Part shown: positions 10,819 through 17,202 of the stretch, one piece after another
Layout of the letters: each line of letters begins with the position of its first letter
Numbering within the stretch: the stretch's first letter is position 1
Assembly: GCA_963825065.1 (NCBI GenBank)
Contig: CAWGRU010000020.1
Location: 17,830-81,829 of the forward strand
Direction: 5' to 3'
DNA: 64,000 nt
From: an uncultured Gemmatimonadales bacterium
GTDB taxonomy: Bacteria > Gemmatimonadota > Gemmatimonadetes > Gemmatimonadales > GWC2-71-9
Notes under the pieces: generated by a model
Seen by the model: only the letters and a program-made list of their open reading frames with translations
Databases searched by the model: none
Told to the model about the DNA's origin: nothing
Position numbers and translations under genes: made by a program

Positions 10819-11658
10819 CTATCGCAGCAGCTCCTCCAGCCGCACCGCCGTGTCGGTCCGGTCGTCCCGGTATTTCACGACCACCGGGGCGTAGAGCGAG
10901 ATCCCCATCGCCTGTCCCGGACCGCTCGAGACCGGACGTGAGCCGGGAACGACCACCGCTCCCGCAGGGATCTCCAGCGGCCGGTCGCCCTCTCTGCGGT
11001 AGGTGGTGTTGCGGACCAGGTCGTAGACGATGGTCCCGCCGGTGAGGATCGTCCCCGGCGCCAGCACTGCCTGCTCGCGGACGATCGTTCCCTCGTAGAC
11101 GCCGCAGTTGCCGCCGACCAGGACCCCGTCTTCGATGATGACCGGGAGCGCGCCGATCGGCTCCAGCACGCCGCCGATCTGGGCCGCGGCCGAGAGGTGC
11201 ACCCGCTTGCCGATCTGCGCACAGGAACCGACCAGCGCGTGACTGTCGACCATGGTGCCTTCGTCGACGTACGCCCCGGCGTTGATGAAGGCAGGAGGCA
11301 TGATCACGACGCCGGTGGCGACGAAGGCGCCGTCGCGGATGGAACTGCCCCCGGGGACCAGCCGCACCCCATCCAGTGGCGACAACCGCTTCAGCGGCCA
11401 GGTGTGCTTGTCGAAGAAGGGGAACGGTCCGCCCTCCGCGGCCGGCTGTACCGTCCCCAGCCTGAACCCGAGCAGGATGCCCGCCTTGACCCAGGCGTTG
11501 GCGCGCCACCGGCCCGCCGCATCCCGCTCGGCGGCGCGGACCGTCCCGGCATTCAGTCCCGCCTTGAGCCGTTCGAACGCGACCAGCGCCTCCGCCTCCT
11601 CTCCCGGCGCCACCCGCTGCGCGTAGCGCTCGATCGCGACGCGCAGGTCAGCACTCAT
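10819..11658 (-). CDS. dapD: Tetrahydrodipicolinate N-succinyltransferase
   Basis: MSADLR start; WVKAGILLGF, FFDK, GAYVDEGTMVDSHALVGSCAQIGKRVHLSAAAQIGGVLEP. Confidence 0.95.
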   Translation of the reverse strand: MSADLRVAIERYAQRVAPGEEAEALVAFERLKAGLNAGTVRAAERDAAGRWRANAWVKAGILLGFRLGTVQPAAEGGPFPFFDKHTWPLKRLSPLDGVRLVPGGSSIRDGAFVATGVVIMPPAFINAGAYVDEGTMVDSHALVGSCAQIGKRVHLSAAAQIGGVLEPIGALPVIIEDGVLVGGNCGVYEGTIVREQAVLAPGTILTGGTIVYDLVRNTTYRREGDRPLEIPAGAVVVPGSRPVSSGPGQAMGISLYAPVVVKYRDDRTDTAVRLEELLR

Positions 11659-12561
11659 CGGGCGACCGCCGCCGCCGGTTCGACACCGGCCGCCTGCAGC
11701 GCCGCGAACAACGGTGCCCGCCGCTGCTCCGAGAGCGGGACCAGCGGCAGCCGTAATACGTCGTGGATCCGCCCCATCGCGGCCAGCGCCGCCTTGACCG
11801 GCGCCGGATTGGTCTCGAGGAAGTTGGCCTCGAGCAGCGGGAGGATGGTGTAGAGGATTTCGCGCGCCTCGGCGAACTGGCCGTCGGAGGCAGTGACGCA
11901 CCATCGCGCTCATGATGCCGGGGATCTCGTTGGAGGCGACCGAGATCAGGCCGTCCCCGCCGGCGGCGATGACTGCCAGGGTCATCCAGTCCTCGCCGGA
12001 GAGCACCGCGAAGCCGTCGGGCCGGCCCAGCAGTAGATGCTGGACCTGAGCCAGGTCGCCGGAGGATTCCTTGATCCCGATGATGTTCGGGTGGCTGGCC
12101 AGCCGGAGCACCGTCTCCGGCTTCATGTTGACCGAGGTGCGGCCGGGGACGTTGTAGAGGCAGACCGGGACGCTCGCCGCATCGGCCACGGCGGTGAAGT
12201 GCCGGTAGAGGCCTTCGGGCGTGGGCCTGTTGTAGTAGGGCGTCGCGGAGAGGAGCCAGGTGACGCCGAGTGCGCTCATCCGGCGCGCCTCTTCCACCGC
12301 CTGGCGGGTGTCGTTGTGGGTGGCACCCGCCATGACGGGGACCCGCCCGGAGGCGGTCTCCACCACGGTGCGCACCACCCGTTCCCGCTCCTCCGTCGAG
12401 AGCGTCTGGGCCTCCCCGGTGCTGCCGCACGGCACCAGGAAGTTGATCCCGTCCTCGATCTGCCACTCCACGAGCTTTCGGAGCGCCCCGACGTCCACCG
12501 TTCCATCCGGCGTGAACGGCGTCACGATCGCCGTTCCGCATCCTCTCAGTGCGGTCGTCAT
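11655..12561 (-). CDS. dapA: 4-hydroxy-tetrahydrodipicolinate synthase (one frameshift near 11885)
   Basis: TAIVTPF, GSTGE, PYYNRP, LYNVPGRT, GIKESSG; C-terminus ANFLETNPAPVKAAL..LRLPLV lies in a shifted frame ending at 11655. Confidence 0.92.
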
Positions 12562-13256
12562 GGTGCCTCCCCGAAGAGCATCTGGTCGAATGTGAACACG
12601 CCTGTGCGACCCCGAATCCATTCTGCGGCCAGCAGCGCACCGGCGGCGAAGGCCTGCCGACCGCGCGCGGTGTGGCTCAGCCGGATGGTCTCATGGGTCG
12701 CGTCGTACACCACCTCGTGCGTCCCGGGCGCGAACCCGCCCCGGACACTGGAAATCGGAAAGTCGCGCTGGCCGTCGCCCTCCCGCAGGGTGGCGCGCAA
12801 CCGCAGCGCCGTGCCGGAGGGGGCGTCGAGCTTGGCCGCGTGGTGGGTCTCCACGACGAAGGCCTCGAACTCCGCCCGCCCGGCGAAGCGGGCCGCGAGA
12901 TCGCGCGCGGCGCGCAGATAGAGCTGGACGCCGATGGAAAAGTTGGGGCTGTACAGGAGGGCGCTGCGGTGGGCGGTCACGGTGCGGGCGACGTCGGGAA
13001 GCCGGTCGAGCCAGCCGGTGGTCCCGGTGATGGTTCGCATGCCCAGGGCCGCGAGGCGCAGCAGGTGGTCGGCCGCGCGGTCGGGCCGGGTGAATTCGAT
13101 CGCCACATCCGCGCCGTCGAGGCGCGCCGCGGTGATCGCCTCGCCGGCGCGATTCTCCGCGCCGCTGATCACCGTGTGGATGGCGTGACCGCGCTCCACC
13201 GCCAGTTGCGCGATGGTCCGGTTCATCCGGCCGTCTCCTACCAGGGCGATGCGCAT
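12558..13256 (-). CDS. dapB: 4-hydroxy-tetrahydrodipicolinate reductase
   Basis: MRIALVGDGRM, IEFTRP, GTTGW, PNFSIG, ETHHAAKLDAPSGTA, FAAGA. Confidence 0.95.
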   Translation of the reverse strand: MRIALVGDGRMNRTIAQLAVERGHAIHTVISGAENRAGEAITAARLDGADVAIEFTRPDRAADHLLRLAALGMRTITGTTGWLDRLPDVARTVTAHRSALLYSPNFSIGVQLYLRAARDLAARFAGRAEFEAFVVETHHAAKLDAPSGTALRLRATLREGDGQRDFPISSVRGGFAPGTHEVVYDATHETIRLSHTARGRQAFAAGALLAAEWIRGRTGVFTFDQMLFGEAP

Positions 13257-13261
13257 CGGGG

Positions 13262-14317
13262 TCACCGGGTGACGTAGCCCTGCTGCACCAGCAGCTCCGC
13301 GTTCTGGATCGCGGCGCCGGCGGCGCCCCGGATGGTATTGTGCGACAGCAGCGCCAGCCGGATGTCGAGCAGGTTGCAGGGCCGCACCCGGCCGACGGTC
13401 ACCGTCATCCCGGCGCCGCGGTCGAGGTCCAGCCGGGACTGCGGCCGGTCGTTGCGCAGGTCCACTTCGATCGGCCGCGCGGGGGTCGACGGCAGCGCGC
13501 CGACGTCGCCGGGGGCGCGGAATCCCTCGAGCGCGGCGACCGCCTCCCGCGGCGTGACCCGACGGGCGAAGCCTACCGACACCACCTCGAGGTGGCCATC
13601 GATGACCGGCACCCGGTTGGTATGCGCGCTGGTCGCGATCGGCGCAGGCGTCACCGCGGCGCCGGCGAATGCGCCCAGGATCTTCGCCGTCTCCTGCTCC
13701 ATCTTCTCTTCCTCGCCGCCGATGAACGGAATCACGTTGCCCAGCGCGTCCAGCGAGGCGACGCCCGGATAGCCGGCGCCGCTCACCGCCTGCATCGTGG
13801 CGACGAAGACCTTCTCGACGCCGAAGACGCGATGCAGCGGCGCCAGCGCCACGACCAGGCCGGCGGTCGAGCAGTTCGGGTTGGCGACGATCCCGCCGGC
13901 CCAGCCCCGTTCCCGCCGCTGTCGGGCGAGCAGGCCGAGATGCTCCGGATTCACTTCCGGGATGAGCAGCGGGACATCCGGCTCCATCCGGTGGGTCTTG
14001 GTGTTGGTCACCACCAACACACCGGCGCGGGCGAACGCCTGCTCGACCTGGCCGGCGATCTCCGCCTCGATGGCCGAGAAGGCGACCCGCCCCGGAATCG
14101 TCGGCTCGCAGCGGCCGACGGTCATCGCCGCGACCCGCTCGGGGAGCGGGGTCGATTCGCGCCAGCGCACGATGTCGCCGTAGCGCTTGCCGGCGCTCTG
14201 TTCCGACGCGGCGACCGCGGCGATCTCGAACCAGGGATGGTCGGCCAGCAGCCGGACGAACTTCTGCCCGACGGTGCCGGTGGCGCCCAGGATGGATACG
14301 GGAATCTTGGAACTCAT
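13262..14317 (-). CDS. asd: Aspartate-semialdehyde dehydrogenase
   Basis: [43 protein letters not shown]. Confidence 0.96.
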
Positions 14318-14337
14318 GCGCTCTCCGGTGTCCGTCG

Positions 14338-15360
14338 TCAGCCGTCTGATGGCTGCCGGCCATCTGCGATCAGGTCCCACGCCAGCTTCTCGTACAGCCG
14401 CACCCCCTCGAGCAGCTCCGCCTTGGCGATCCGCTCCCCGCTGGTGTGCGCCACCCGGATGGTGCCGGGCCCCAGCTGAAATCCCTGGCCCCACGCCGCG
14501 TGGAACGGCAGGTCGCTGGCATAGCTCACCACGGTGGTCTCCCATCCCGCAGGCGCGGCGGCGGTATTCTTGAAGAACGGCAGTTCGGTCGGGAAGCTGA
14601 CCGTCACGCCGGGCTGGGCACAGGCGACGATCTCCCGTTGCAGCGTCGCCGAGGGCCCGACCAGCCGGACCAGGAGCTCCGCGCGCGCCGATGGGGGGAT
14701 GACGTTCGGCGCGACGCCCCCTTCCACCCTTCCGATGTTCAGGGTGCTCGCGCCGAGCATCGGATCCGAGGGCAGCGGCAGCCGGCGGAGCCGTTCGAGC
14801 GTGTCGAGGATCGGAAGTAGCGCCGACTTCCCCTCGTCGGGATAGGCGGAGTGCGCGGCCTTGCCGGTGCACTCGAGCACCACCTTGATCGAACCCTTCT
14901 GCCCCATGCTGAGCCGGTTCTCCGTCGGCTCGCCGTTGATCAGGAACCGGCCCTTCGGCTCGAGCGCGCCGGCCACCTGGGCCCCGTCCGATCCGTTCTC
15001 CTCCCCAACCACGAACAGCAGCCCGATGCGGCGCTCGTTTCGCTCGGCGAGCCGTTCGGCGGCGGCGATCATCGCCGCGGCCAGCCCCTTGGCGTCGCAG
15101 GTGCCGCGGCCGTGCAGATGGGTCTCATCCTCCCGGAGCGGCAGGTACGGCGGGACGCAGTCCAGGTGGGTGGAGAAGACCACCTCGGGTGCCTCACGGA
15201 AGGCGTAGAGATTGTCCCGGCCCGGCGTGACCGGCTGGCGGATCGTCCGGTAACCGAGGCCGCGGAGCAGGCTGGTGAGCAGCTCCACCGCCGGGCCTTC
15301 GTGGCCGGTCGGCGTGTCCAGGGCGACCAGCTCCTTCGTGAGTGCGATCGGGTCGAGCAC
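14338..15360 (-). CDS. M20 (ArgE/DapE-family) metallo-amidohydrolase, probable DapE role
   Basis: GTG start [12 protein letters not shown]; [26 protein letters not shown]; first structural gene of dap operon. Confidence 0.85.
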
Positions 15361-15373
15361 GCAAGCTCCGCAG

Positions 15374-15410
15374 AAAAAAAAGAAGCCCCACCGGAAATTC
15401 GCGGCGGGGC
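15374..15410 (-). terminator. Intrinsic terminator in the dap operon leader (attenuator terminator)
   Basis: Minus strand GCCCCGCCG-cgaatttc-CGGTGGGGC stem followed by TTC and a long T run, immediately upstream of the M20 gene. Confidence 0.88.
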
Positions 15411-15436
15411 GTTCGAGTCCAGTCAGGGCAATATCG

Positions 15437-15523
15437 TCAGACTGGCCGTCGCTCACCGCGCGCGGTCATGGGCTTCTTGGTGCGCTTCGTAGTGCCCATC
15501 GCGGGCGGGAGAGCCAGTCGCAT
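15437..15523 (-). CDS. Putative attenuator leader peptide MRLALPPAMGTTKRTKKPMTARGERRPV
   Basis: 28-aa ORF with M/T/K cluster (MGTTKRTKKPMT); TAGCTT -10-like box 6 nt upstream of ATG; ends just before the terminator. Confidence 0.75.
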   Translation of the reverse strand: MRLALPPAMGTTKRTKKPMTARGERRPV

Positions 15524-15885
15524 GGACCTAAGCTATGAACAGAGCGCACCGGGGACAAGTGGCCCCCGTGCTCGCGGTGCCGCGAGACGCCACCCAGCTT
15601 CCGGCGGCATTCGCCACTTCACCCCGATCATGGGATCCCGCCCCGCTCCCGGACCATCGCCGCCCGCGTGCTCGGCGGACTGTTGCACGCCGGCCACCTC
15701 CGCGCCCAGGATCCGGTCCATTCGGCCAGCGGAAGCGGTACCCTGCTCACCGGCTACGGCGTCGCCCGGCAGGAGATCGGCCGGGCTGAGGCAAACCTGT
15801 ACGGCAATGGCGGAATCGATCTCCGGCAGCCGGTCCGGCTTGCCTTCCGAGCGGTCGCAGCGCCCGTGCTGGTGCCGCCCGTCCA

Positions 15886-17202
15886 CTACGCCGCCTCCGC
15901 AGCGCGGGCCTCCCGCTGGCCCTGCTCCACATCCACGAAGTGGAGCAGGGCGCCGCCCACCACGAAGAAGGCCACGATCGCCAGGATCGCCACTCGGCTC
16001 GAGCCGGTCACGCCGATCACCCTGGCAAAGATCCACGGGCCGAAGATCCCCGCGAACTTCTCCACGACCGCGAAGAAGCCGAAGAACTCCGCCGAGCGCG
16101 CCTGGGGATCATGCTGGCGAACAGCGACCGGGAGAGCGCCTGGGTGCCGCCCTGCACCACGCCCACCAGCAGCGCCAGTATCAGGAAGTGGGTCGCGTTG
16201 GTCATGAAGTAGCCGAGCACGCTGATGCCCGCGTAGACGACGAGGCCGACGAAGATCGGCGCGCTTGGCGCCGATGCGGCTGGCGAAGGAGCCGAACAGG
16301 AAGGCGAACGGGATCCCGACGAACTGCACGATCATGATCGACGCGATCAGCGCACCGGGCCGATGCCGATCTCGGTGCCGTAGATCGTCGCCATCCGGAT
16401 GATGGTGCCGATGCCGTCGTTGTAGATCAGGAAGGCGATGAGCATCAGGACGGCCTGCCGGAACTCGCCCAGCCGCCTGAAGGTGGACCGCCGAGCTCGC
16501 GGAAGGCGGCGCCCACGTCGATGCGGCCGTCGCCCGTGGCAGCCGGCTCGCGGACGTCGCGGAACAGCGGAATCGAGAAGACCATCCACCAGATCGCGAC
16601 CGACAGGAACGCCAGCCGCGTCGGCAGGGTCGCCTGCGCAGGCGTCAGGTCGGGGCCCGACGGCAGTCCGAACCAGGCCGGCTTCTGGATCCAGGCGAGG
16701 TTCAGCGCGAGCAGCAGCCCGCCGCCGACGTACCCCAGGGCGTAGCCCGCGGTCGAGACCCGGTCCATCTCCTCCGGCGCCGCGATGTGGGGCAAGAAGC
16801 GAGTCGTAGACAGACGAAGCTCGCGTTCACCGCGATGTTCGCGACGACGAACAGACCGGCGGCGAGCACCCAGTCGCCCCGCTCGATGAAGAACATCAGG
16901 CCGACCGCGACCACCCCGATGATCAGGGAGAGTCCCAGCAGCCGCTTCTTCACCCCGGCCCGGTCGGCGATGGCCCCGAGGATCGGCGAGAGGACCGCGA
17001 TGATGACGAGCCCGATCGTCGTGGCGTCGGCGAGCCGCTTGGTGGCGAGCGCCGGGGCGAGGTCCGCCGCGGCGACCTTGGCGAAGTAGATCGGGAAGAC
17101 GGCGGTGACGATGGTGGTGACCATCGCGGAGTTCGCCCAGTCGTACATCGCCCAGGCACGCAGCTCCCGGCGGTGCAGGCCCAGTCGCTCGAGGATCGTC
17201 AT
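15886..17202 (-). CDS. MFS transporter, UMF1/Atg22-like; several frameshifts
   Basis: [47 protein letters not shown] found across shifting frames; ATGA overlap with oxidase gene. Confidence 0.8.

Follow-up and report, generated by a model that had tools for sequence, protein, structure and literature searches.

Multivalent leader-peptide attenuation is well known from the thrL leader of Escherichia coli (Rfam Thr_leader, RF00506) and from the leader of ilvGMEDA in the same species. For lysC, asd-linked and dap genes, the usual RNA control in Firmicutes and Gammaproteobacteria is the lysine riboswitch (L-box, RF00168), and asd of E. coli is known physiologically to be under multivalent control by lysine, threonine and methionine. 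The lysine cluster of Thermus thermophilus (AAA pathway) is reportedly controlled by leader-peptide attenuation (Tsubouchi et al., J Biol Chem 2005).

Leaderless leaders also have a precedent: in Sinorhizobium meliloti, the mRNA of the trpL attenuator starts with the AUG of the leader peptide (PMC10117765). The same paper describes SEP5, a translated small ORF in a 5′ UTR with six Thr and three Lys codons, whose downstream gene the authors tie to the Thr/Lys pathway and which they consider a possible leader peptide, with conservation limited to Sinorhizobium (PMC10117765). For Actinobacteria, one study is reported to have found no conserved RNA element preceding lysine or threonine operons (PMC1262725). 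Our literature search turned up no description of a Lys/Thr/Met leader before asd or dap genes, no report of an asd leader-peptide attenuator and none of leader-peptide attenuation in Gemmatimonadetes.

Here we analyze a 64,000-nt stretch of DNA from an uncultured Gemmatimonadales bacterium (hereafter, the window, to which all positions refer) and an element read on its minus strand upstream of a dapE-like/asd/dap operon. A preliminary description of this DNA had interpreted the element as a ribosome-mediated attenuator reading Lys, Thr and Met. We document its anatomy, its conservation, its in-frame ORF, its codon bias and the complementarity of its segments. Comparison across relatives (conserved ORF, codon bias, alternative pairings) lends support to the multi-amino-acid reading, and the element is probably, as judged from sequence, a classical ribosome-mediated transcription attenuator of the operon.

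Results

The leader and the operon that it precedes

On the minus strand, the leader ATG is preceded at a distance of 6 nt by a -10-like box, TAGCTT (TANNNT; 15530..15535), and 17 nt upstream of this box stands a -35-like hexamer, TTGTCC (15553..15558); the CTTGT motif of the -35 region is kept in relatives. A simple sigma-70 scan recognized no promoter at the leader, because its rule demands a closer match than TTGTCC/TAGCTT. The leader ORF, MRLALPPAMGTTKRTKKPMTARGERRPV, comprises 28 codons and TGA (15437..15523, minus strand; ATG 15523-15521, TGA 15439-15437), and 9 of the 12 codons of its segment MGTTKRTKKPMT encode Met, Thr or Lys. Three parts can be distinguished within it. Codons 2-10 make up region 1 (15494..15519), the 5′ arm of a long leader hairpin (the anti-antiterminator), which was delimited by minimum free energy (MFE) structures and by comparison of cognate and permuted duplexes. 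Codons 11-20 form the control block TTKRTKKPMT (15464..15493), delimited by MFE structures and K/T/M enrichment, and region 2 (15440..15473), delimited by folding and duplex tests, is the 3′ arm of the 1:2 hairpin.

Region 2 also holds the antiterminator's 5′ strands: CGCGGTG (15460-15454), GCG (in the 15453-15451 region) and CCAGTC (15445-15440). Beyond the stop codon, still on the minus strand, follow GACTGG (15419..15424), the 3′ strand of the apical antiterminator helix and partner of the ORF-end CCAGTC; an intrinsic terminator hairpin, GCCCCGCCG/CGGTGGGGC (15385..15410; 9 pairs, 8 of them G-C, with a loop of 8); and a T run, TTCTTTTTTTT (15374..15384), the terminator tail reading TTCTTTTTTT. 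The terminator 5′ arm and the start of its loop provide the remaining 3′ strand of the antiterminator, CGCCGCG at 15406-15400, which is complementary to CGCGGTG through six Watson-Crick pairs and one G-U pair. The preliminary description had pointed to the TAGCTT box, the K/T/M-rich ORF and the terminator with its T run on this strand, all of which are there at the coordinates that it gave; the CGCGGTG/CGCCGCG complementarity that it proposed likewise exists, and the alternative pairings are conserved in relatives. It had also proposed a separate CCAGTC/GACTGG hairpin; both sequences are present, but they are better taken as the apical part of the antiterminator.

The region 14800-16400 holds one terminator-like site, against 0.6 expected in shuffles. 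The 185-nt leader folds at -74.3 kcal/mol (z -2.64), a value equalled by 1 of 200 dinucleotide shuffles. The arrangement exceeds what chance would give, as judged from its conservation in relatives and from its rarity in the genome. A frame-agnostic scan of the whole genome (4.35 Mb) for TTG/TANNNT/ATG small ORFs followed by a terminator returned only three places: the asd-dap leader, MRNTERLGFFFFFTSPGGALPSGAGKP before the prephenate dehydratase gene (pheA), and an L/V/I-rich ORF before gltB. As a separate observation, CUGAC/CUGA-like repeats occur in two to three copies between the leader stop codon and the terminator (15411-15439, minus strand). They are present in all three attenuator-like leaders of the window's genome, G000 (those in the window, on C19 and on C3), and in some copies they place UGA in all three frames.

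The first structural gene, on the minus strand like the rest of the operon, encodes an M20 ArgE/DapE-family deacylase (14338..15360). Its best NCBIfam score, 116.6 bits, is below every curated or equivalog cut-off, and we call it DapE-like by context. A GGAG (15369-15366) precedes its GTG start at 15360-15358 (together 15358..15369), and orthologues align from residue 1-3. It is followed by asd, for aspartate-semialdehyde dehydrogenase (13262..14317; 461.2 bits, cut-off 232), dapB (12558..13256; 113 bits, just below the cut-off of 122), dapA (11660..12561; 262 bits, cut-off 206, scored from the first 237 residues only because the gene is frame-shifted in the assembly near its last quarter) and dapD (10819..11658; 293.3 bits, cut-off 204). 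The leader thus stands upstream of an asd-dap operon, as had been proposed, with the amendment that the first gene after it is DapE-like, not asd.

From the T run to the GTG of the DapE-like gene it is only 13 nt. A promoter of its own would not fit there, and transcription of the operon must therefore come from the one at the leader. A mechanical ORF list starts this gene at GTG 15456, across the terminator (14338-15456); orthologue alignments support the start at GTG 15360. We note as a caution for annotators that longest-ORF gene callers would swallow the terminator together with half of the leader ORF and so hide the element.

Two frame disruptions were seen nearby. The frame of dapA changes in its last quarter (11650-12000, minus strand), its proper C-terminus, ...ILYTILPLLEANFLETNPAPVKAAL..., lying in another frame, and an MFS-like transporter gene upstream of the leader (15886-17202, minus strand) is broken up between three frames by no fewer than five shifts. 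The assembly looks indel-prone, or else these two genes are decaying.

Occurrence in related genomes

The preliminary description had suggested a search of related genomes for a K/T/M-rich upstream ORF with a terminator, and this search yielded 38 distinct copies from at least nine genera of one Gemmatimonadales family, all before dapE-asd or before asd itself. We examined 30 loci, each the best DapE-like match in one of 30 genomes. Among the 22 loci of the window's genus, the leader ORF and terminator lie directly upstream of the DapE-like gene in 19 and directly upstream of asd, downstream of dapE, in two (L020, L021). The leader is absent from the one remaining locus (L004, in genome G008, which is 95% complete); a model scan of that genome returned a Phe leader only, and its DapE-like gene is without the asd-dap leader. 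None of the eight DapE-like loci of two other families has the leader ORF and terminator.

A wider search with a 21-letter degenerate pattern of the ORF end, applied to one genome each of 185,579 species, found 32 places. Seventeen are in Gemmatimonadota MAGs, every one of them in a dapE/asd leader context, and none of the remaining 15, in other phyla, comes with a small ORF and terminator. We also built two covariance models, R1 on the first 24 distinct copies and R2 on 38. Matches to R1 occurred in 31 of 151 family genomes, 16 of which carry copies of full length, each comprising a leader ORF and followed by dapE-like or asd (genera g1, g13, g18, g25, g33, g43, g58 and g61); eight further loci were read and rejected as terminators or unrelated sequences, six others being partial matches. 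With R2, 36 of 151 genomes drawn from the phylum gave a match, among them seven more genomes with true copies (g1, g33, g48, g58), while the five matches outside the family that were read (L101, L104, L107, L108, L111; besides these, there were weak matches in G215, G242 and G269) were rejected as terminators behind unrelated ORFs. Among the genomes searched, the element was found only in one family. In g58, as in two genomes of g1, asd is the gene immediately after the leader. A copy from g33, L098, is very short. In five genomes (G088, G091, G063, G078, G042), an aspartokinase gene follows asd in the same direction, an order judged from spacing.

Alternative pairings and in silico switching

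In the MFE structure of the window's leader, a long, imperfect hairpin joins codons 2-10 (15519-15494) to codons 18-28 (15473-15440), and its 20-nt loop (ACU ACG AAG CGC ACC AAG AA) spans codons 11-17. This 1:2 hairpin with control codons in its loop is an element that the preliminary description had missed. When folded alone, the stretch that runs from region 2 through the terminator loop adopts one and the same three-part antiterminator in all 24 leaders of the first set. In its first part, (G)CGCGG(C/U/G)G pairs with CGCCGCG(C), which belongs to the 5′ arm and loop of the terminator; in the second, GCG pairs with a CGC adjacent to that arm on its 5′ side; and the third joins the last ORF codons to the GACUG(G) motif. 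In 21 of the 24, this fold is stabler than the isolated terminator hairpin (-29.6 versus -21.9 kcal/mol in the window), part of it being compatible with a simultaneous terminator.

Because region 1 cannot be aligned between genera, we compared RNAduplex energies of cognate and permuted partners across 24 representatives. The 1:2 duplex has -24.6 kcal/mol for cognate and -22.6 kcal/mol for permuted partners, and 9 of 10000 permutations equal the cognate arrangement; this comparison used 23 representatives, as the ORF of L072 is too short for a region 1. For the 2:3 duplex, the values are -18.1 and -16.9 kcal/mol, with 6 of 10000 as good, and for the terminator arms no permutation in 10000 is as good as the cognate arrangement. 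Two negative-control duplexes gave 8855 and 4694 of 10000; a third, region 1 against the spacer, gave 107 of 10000, so that kinship or length effects exist at the 1% level.

The alignments add a second line of evidence. The terminator is present in 38 of 38 aligned copies, with 95% of cells paired and five pairs changed on both sides, as counted on an alignment fitted to the terminator helix. Scored on a model-made alignment not fitted to it, the antiterminator helix has 82.8% of 407 cells paired, compared with 31-57% when one strand is slid by 1-3 columns. In four of its pairs both partners have changed, and values as high as those observed came up in 4-5 of 500 shuffles; its five central pairs are almost invariant and hence uninformative. 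We regard the covariation of the antiterminator as moderate, not strong. Such shuffle counts are within reach of structureless related sequences. The apical helix CCAGUC/GACUGG shows no covariation (9841 of 10000 permutations as good); its GACTGG motif is conserved within the genus, and 67% of the helix is paired in the alignment.

We then scanned stalled ribosomes in silico, with one 29-nt ribosome mask (A-15 to A+13) on the full transcript and equilibrium folding. In most of the 24 representatives, the terminator keeps P of about 0.8-1.0 at every ribosome position, and only L001, L018, L022, L011 and L037 switch. In the window's leader (L001), the antiterminator wins only with the ribosome on codons 2-12. 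A ribosome on K13-K17 does not have this effect, as it leaves region 1 with a free 5′ half that can pair with region 2 again. In transcripts ending before the terminator 3′ arm, the 5′ arm stays paired with the ORF until the A site reaches about codon -11/-10 and is then released, which makes the K/T/M block the last stall site that still permits the antiterminator. Folding of the alternative structures, as the preliminary description had envisaged, supports the 1:2, 2:3 and terminator pairings, with the switch itself mostly absent at equilibrium. As equilibrium folding fails to reproduce it, the switch would be kinetic, as in textbook attenuators, and may depend on another ribosome queued behind the first, at the leaderless 5′ end.

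Putative control codons

Codons were counted in a span from -20 to -10 relative to the stop; these 11 codons directly precede the antiterminator strand. Across the 38 leaders, this span contains 74 Lys, 95 Thr and 39 Met among 414 codons, compared with 1, 58 and 3 among 580 elsewhere in the ORFs. In the 24 cluster representatives, the counts within the span are K 49, T 58 and M 26, together 133 of 260 (51%), versus 38 of 372 (10%) outside it; the backgrounds in 869 high-GC3 ORFs of the genome are 2.6%, 5.6% and 1.9% (together about 10.2%). Binomial p-values for the enrichment of K, T and M are 3e-27, 2e-19 and 1e-11, all of them overstated because kin are not independent.

The composition of the block differs between genera. 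The window's genus has TKRTKKPMT, g25 KTITATLT or QTITTTLT, g58 TKRTGTTSTTFMTKGGMTM and TTATMRKTTTTTAM, g48 PKPMKCDGIKK and g13 SKTTKCMCMKT. The exception is g18, where two genomes have MPICAARNTCH (no Lys and one Thr; L070) and another has MKCCTGKISS. Each control codon occurs just 2-4 times, and the three kinds are interspersed instead of forming a run. The blend is Lys-rich, Thr-rich or Met-containing according to genus, and the position of the block is constant, a combination that fits codon sensing of aspartate-family end products. The leader would then sense all three amino acids. Like the small number of control codons and the K/T-poor leaders of g18, two other residues in the block weigh against this reading. 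Arg is the commonest residue at -15, mid-block (19 of 38 leaders), and Cys is enriched (12 of 260, versus 0.65% in the proteome), often beside Met or Lys codons; the leaders with a control-block Cys are L017, L066, L016, L067, L068, L073, L074, L075, L079, L080, L096 and L097.

We think it rather unlikely that the attenuator is effectively monovalent, with only lysine (or only threonine) limitation mattering in a given genus and the other codons being passengers. Lysine is the most position-specific of the three, with 74 of 75 Lys codons falling within the span and K at -16 in 17 and at -12 in 18 of the 38 leaders, and four of the five operon genes are specific to DAP/lysine. Tuning of single genera to one amino acid is also conceivable, given a Thr/Ile-rich g25 block with 0-1 Lys and a Lys/Met-rich g48 block without Thr. 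However, K, T and M are all enriched in the window's own genus, and where dapE is elsewhere, the leader goes with asd, the shared enzyme.

Start and reading frame of the leader ORF

The start of the ORF was defined blind to frame, by the pattern TTGnnn-N16-19-TANNNT-N5-8-ATG, which provides a start in 19 of the 24 representatives. In all 19, the ATG so defined opens a frame that runs into the conserved stop, over 10 distinct ORF lengths from 69 to 108 nt; in the five without such a promoter (g61, g18, g33, L010), an ATG follows a -10-like box by 10-27 nt. Among the 24 distinct leaders, the gap from TANNNT to ATG is 6 nt in 17, 7 in two, 8 in three and 10 in one, and one leader is additionally listed with a 4-nt gap. 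With the -10 box 6 nt before the ATG, the transcript would begin at or next to the A of the ATG, i.e., it would be leaderless. Leaderless mRNAs seem common in the order, as seven of eight DapE-like genes of other families (L023-L030; f2, f3) have TANNNT 6-7 nt before their own ATG.

The frame evidence bears on a different kind of switch, run by a metabolite-binding RNA or an RNA-binding protein with the ORF incidental. Nucleotide conservation of the 3′ half of the ORF, including an invariant CGG at -3 and a rare CGA at -4 across the genus, is what such a switch would predict, and the CUGAC-like repeats shared by the three attenuators of the genome could be read in the same way. An incidental ORF is nonetheless hard to reconcile with 19 of 19 leaders in frame over 10 lengths, or with an amino-acid-type bias that persists while the order and nucleotides of the block differ between genera. 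No Rfam match rises above sub-threshold noise at E up to 10: the scan of 14000-17000 gave five sub-threshold matches, all of them to families other than leaders; no curated Rfam leader, Thr_leader (RF00506) included, matched at the gathering score; and the lysine riboswitch (RF00168) was found neither in this region nor in any of 41 genomes of the order, with a control detected in 4 of 14. We consider such a switch improbable.

We find it very improbable that the leader is a nascent-peptide arrest sensor, in which a small molecule would make the ribosome stall on the C-terminus RGERRP(V/A), at the ORF end, and so favor termination. Ligand-dependent arrest peptides such as TnaC and SpeFL are known, and G at -6 and R at -3 are each found in 35 of 38 leaders, but the same positions are antiterminator strands conserved by codon rather than by residue, and other genera end in RGAPRSA, GEGRLV or RGANDTD with the pairing retained. 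Hardly credible, too, is a free-standing small-protein gene with its own terminator and a separate operon promoter, which the 60-110 nt between terminator and start codon in some relatives (L002, L048) would accommodate, but which is at odds with the gap of just 13 nt in the window and with an element that invariably precedes dapE-asd or asd.

Other leaders in the genome and its relatives

Outside the window, a leaderless Phe leader, MRNTERLGFFFFFTSPGG... (FFFFF), with a terminator stands before the prephenate dehydratase gene (G000:C19:330969), which shows a device of this type at work for a further pathway of the organism. It recurs in at least 12 further genomes, with variants FGFFF or WFYF in relatives, and is conserved across genera (loci L117-L120, L122, L124, L125, L127, L128, L130, L131, L102 and L110). 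With R1/R2 it scores 28-36 bits, because its terminator module is similar to the one in the asd-dap leader. Before gltB, a small ORF of leaderless type, MQPVAQFDLALVLITVAALPPGSGPEC, is followed by a terminator (G000:C3, ATG at plus-strand 246632; L123), and an L/V/I-rich ORF in a g18 genome, MHMQRLVLAVCRLAINTV..., resembles it; the gltB leader is a possible branched-chain-codon attenuator.

In one genome of g58 (G088; L129/L133), a second aspartokinase gene has a leaderless leader of its own, MTPLSAVAHRIAALTSALKAGAKKRGPKCGPCGGHSA, with four Lys near its end and a terminator that ends right at the start codon. This is the only such case among the 30 aspartokinase loci examined, and inspection of the region upstream of the G000 aspartokinase gene revealed no leader. 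A relaxed genome scan for amino-acid-rich small ORFs before terminators produced 33 rows, mostly noise; a T/K/I-rich small ORF on C18 was rejected because it lies inside a gene on the opposite strand.

Discussion

In the classical attenuator that we favor, transcription would start at or beside the A of the leader ATG, and region 1 (codons 2-10) and region 2 (codons 18-28) would form a long hairpin with T-T-K-R-T-K-K in its loop. As long as region 2 is held in this 1:2 hairpin, the terminator (3:4) would form and the operon stay silent; a ribosome that reaches the stop codon would cover region 2, with termination as the likely result again. When charged tRNA-Lys, tRNA-Thr or tRNA-Met is scarce, the ribosome would stall in the K/T/M block and keep region 1 off region 2. 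The freed GCGCGG(U/C)G...GCG...CCAGUC could then pair with GACUGG...CGC...CGCCGCG as the terminator 5′ arm emerges, and with this antiterminator in place RNA polymerase would read into dapE-like, asd, dapB, dapA and dapD. Translation, stalling, the order of folding, the leaderless start and which of the three amino acids are relevant are points that we infer from the arrangement and its conservation.

A more elaborate version is worth stating, although we hold it only tentatively and would sooner bet against it. It would have a family-wide leaderless asd attenuator act as a "codon dial", with Lys-rich (g1/g48), Thr-rich (g25/g58) and Met/Cys forms, a Lys-rich copy at the second aspartokinase in one genome, and a disome reaching from the leaderless 5′ end to the stall site, in which a second ribosome on the 5′-terminal 30 nt masks region 1. 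The second ribosome is needed in this version because the control codons sit in the loop and not in region 1.

The element, if it works as proposed, would offer a concrete mechanism for the control of asd, the shared step, and of the DAP branch in a little-studied phylum without lysine riboswitches, and would give the physiologically known, multivalent control of asd by Lys, Thr and Met a molecular basis. It is also a candidate new RNA family, as R1 and R2 find it specifically within one family, and the shifts in codons from genus to genus make a natural series for the evolution of attenuator specificity.

How does this leader compare with the described systems? The lysine riboswitch also ends in a terminator, but it is a ligand-binding RNA without an ORF. 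The nearest published precedent is the suggestion for S. meliloti SEP5, which shares Thr and Lys codons with the asd-dap leader, as trpL of the same species shares its leaderless start. SEP5 differs in belonging to the Alphaproteobacteria, and it is not known to have a terminator/antiterminator or Met codons. Also near is the Thermus lysine leader, which reportedly likewise has Lys codons in a leader peptide that controls lysine biosynthesis genes; unlike the asd-dap leader, it reportedly serves the aminoadipate pathway, in another phylum, and responds to lysine only. With thrL and ilvGMEDA, the asd-dap leader has in common a short ORF with codons for several end products of a branched pathway, a set of 1:2, 2:3 and 3:4 hairpins, and an intrinsic terminator before the first structural gene. 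It has no sequence or covariance-model similarity to them, and its codons are Lys/Thr/Met, for the control of asd and DAP genes, rather than Thr/Ile (thrL) or Ile/Leu/Val (ilvGMEDA). In place of their long runs, it has few, mixed codons behind a leaderless-type promoter, and these lie outside region 1, in the loop between regions 1 and 2, whereas the control codons of thrL and ilvGMEDA are inside region 1. The proposed mechanism is thus the known one of classical multivalent attenuation, and what would be new is its use for asd and dap genes.
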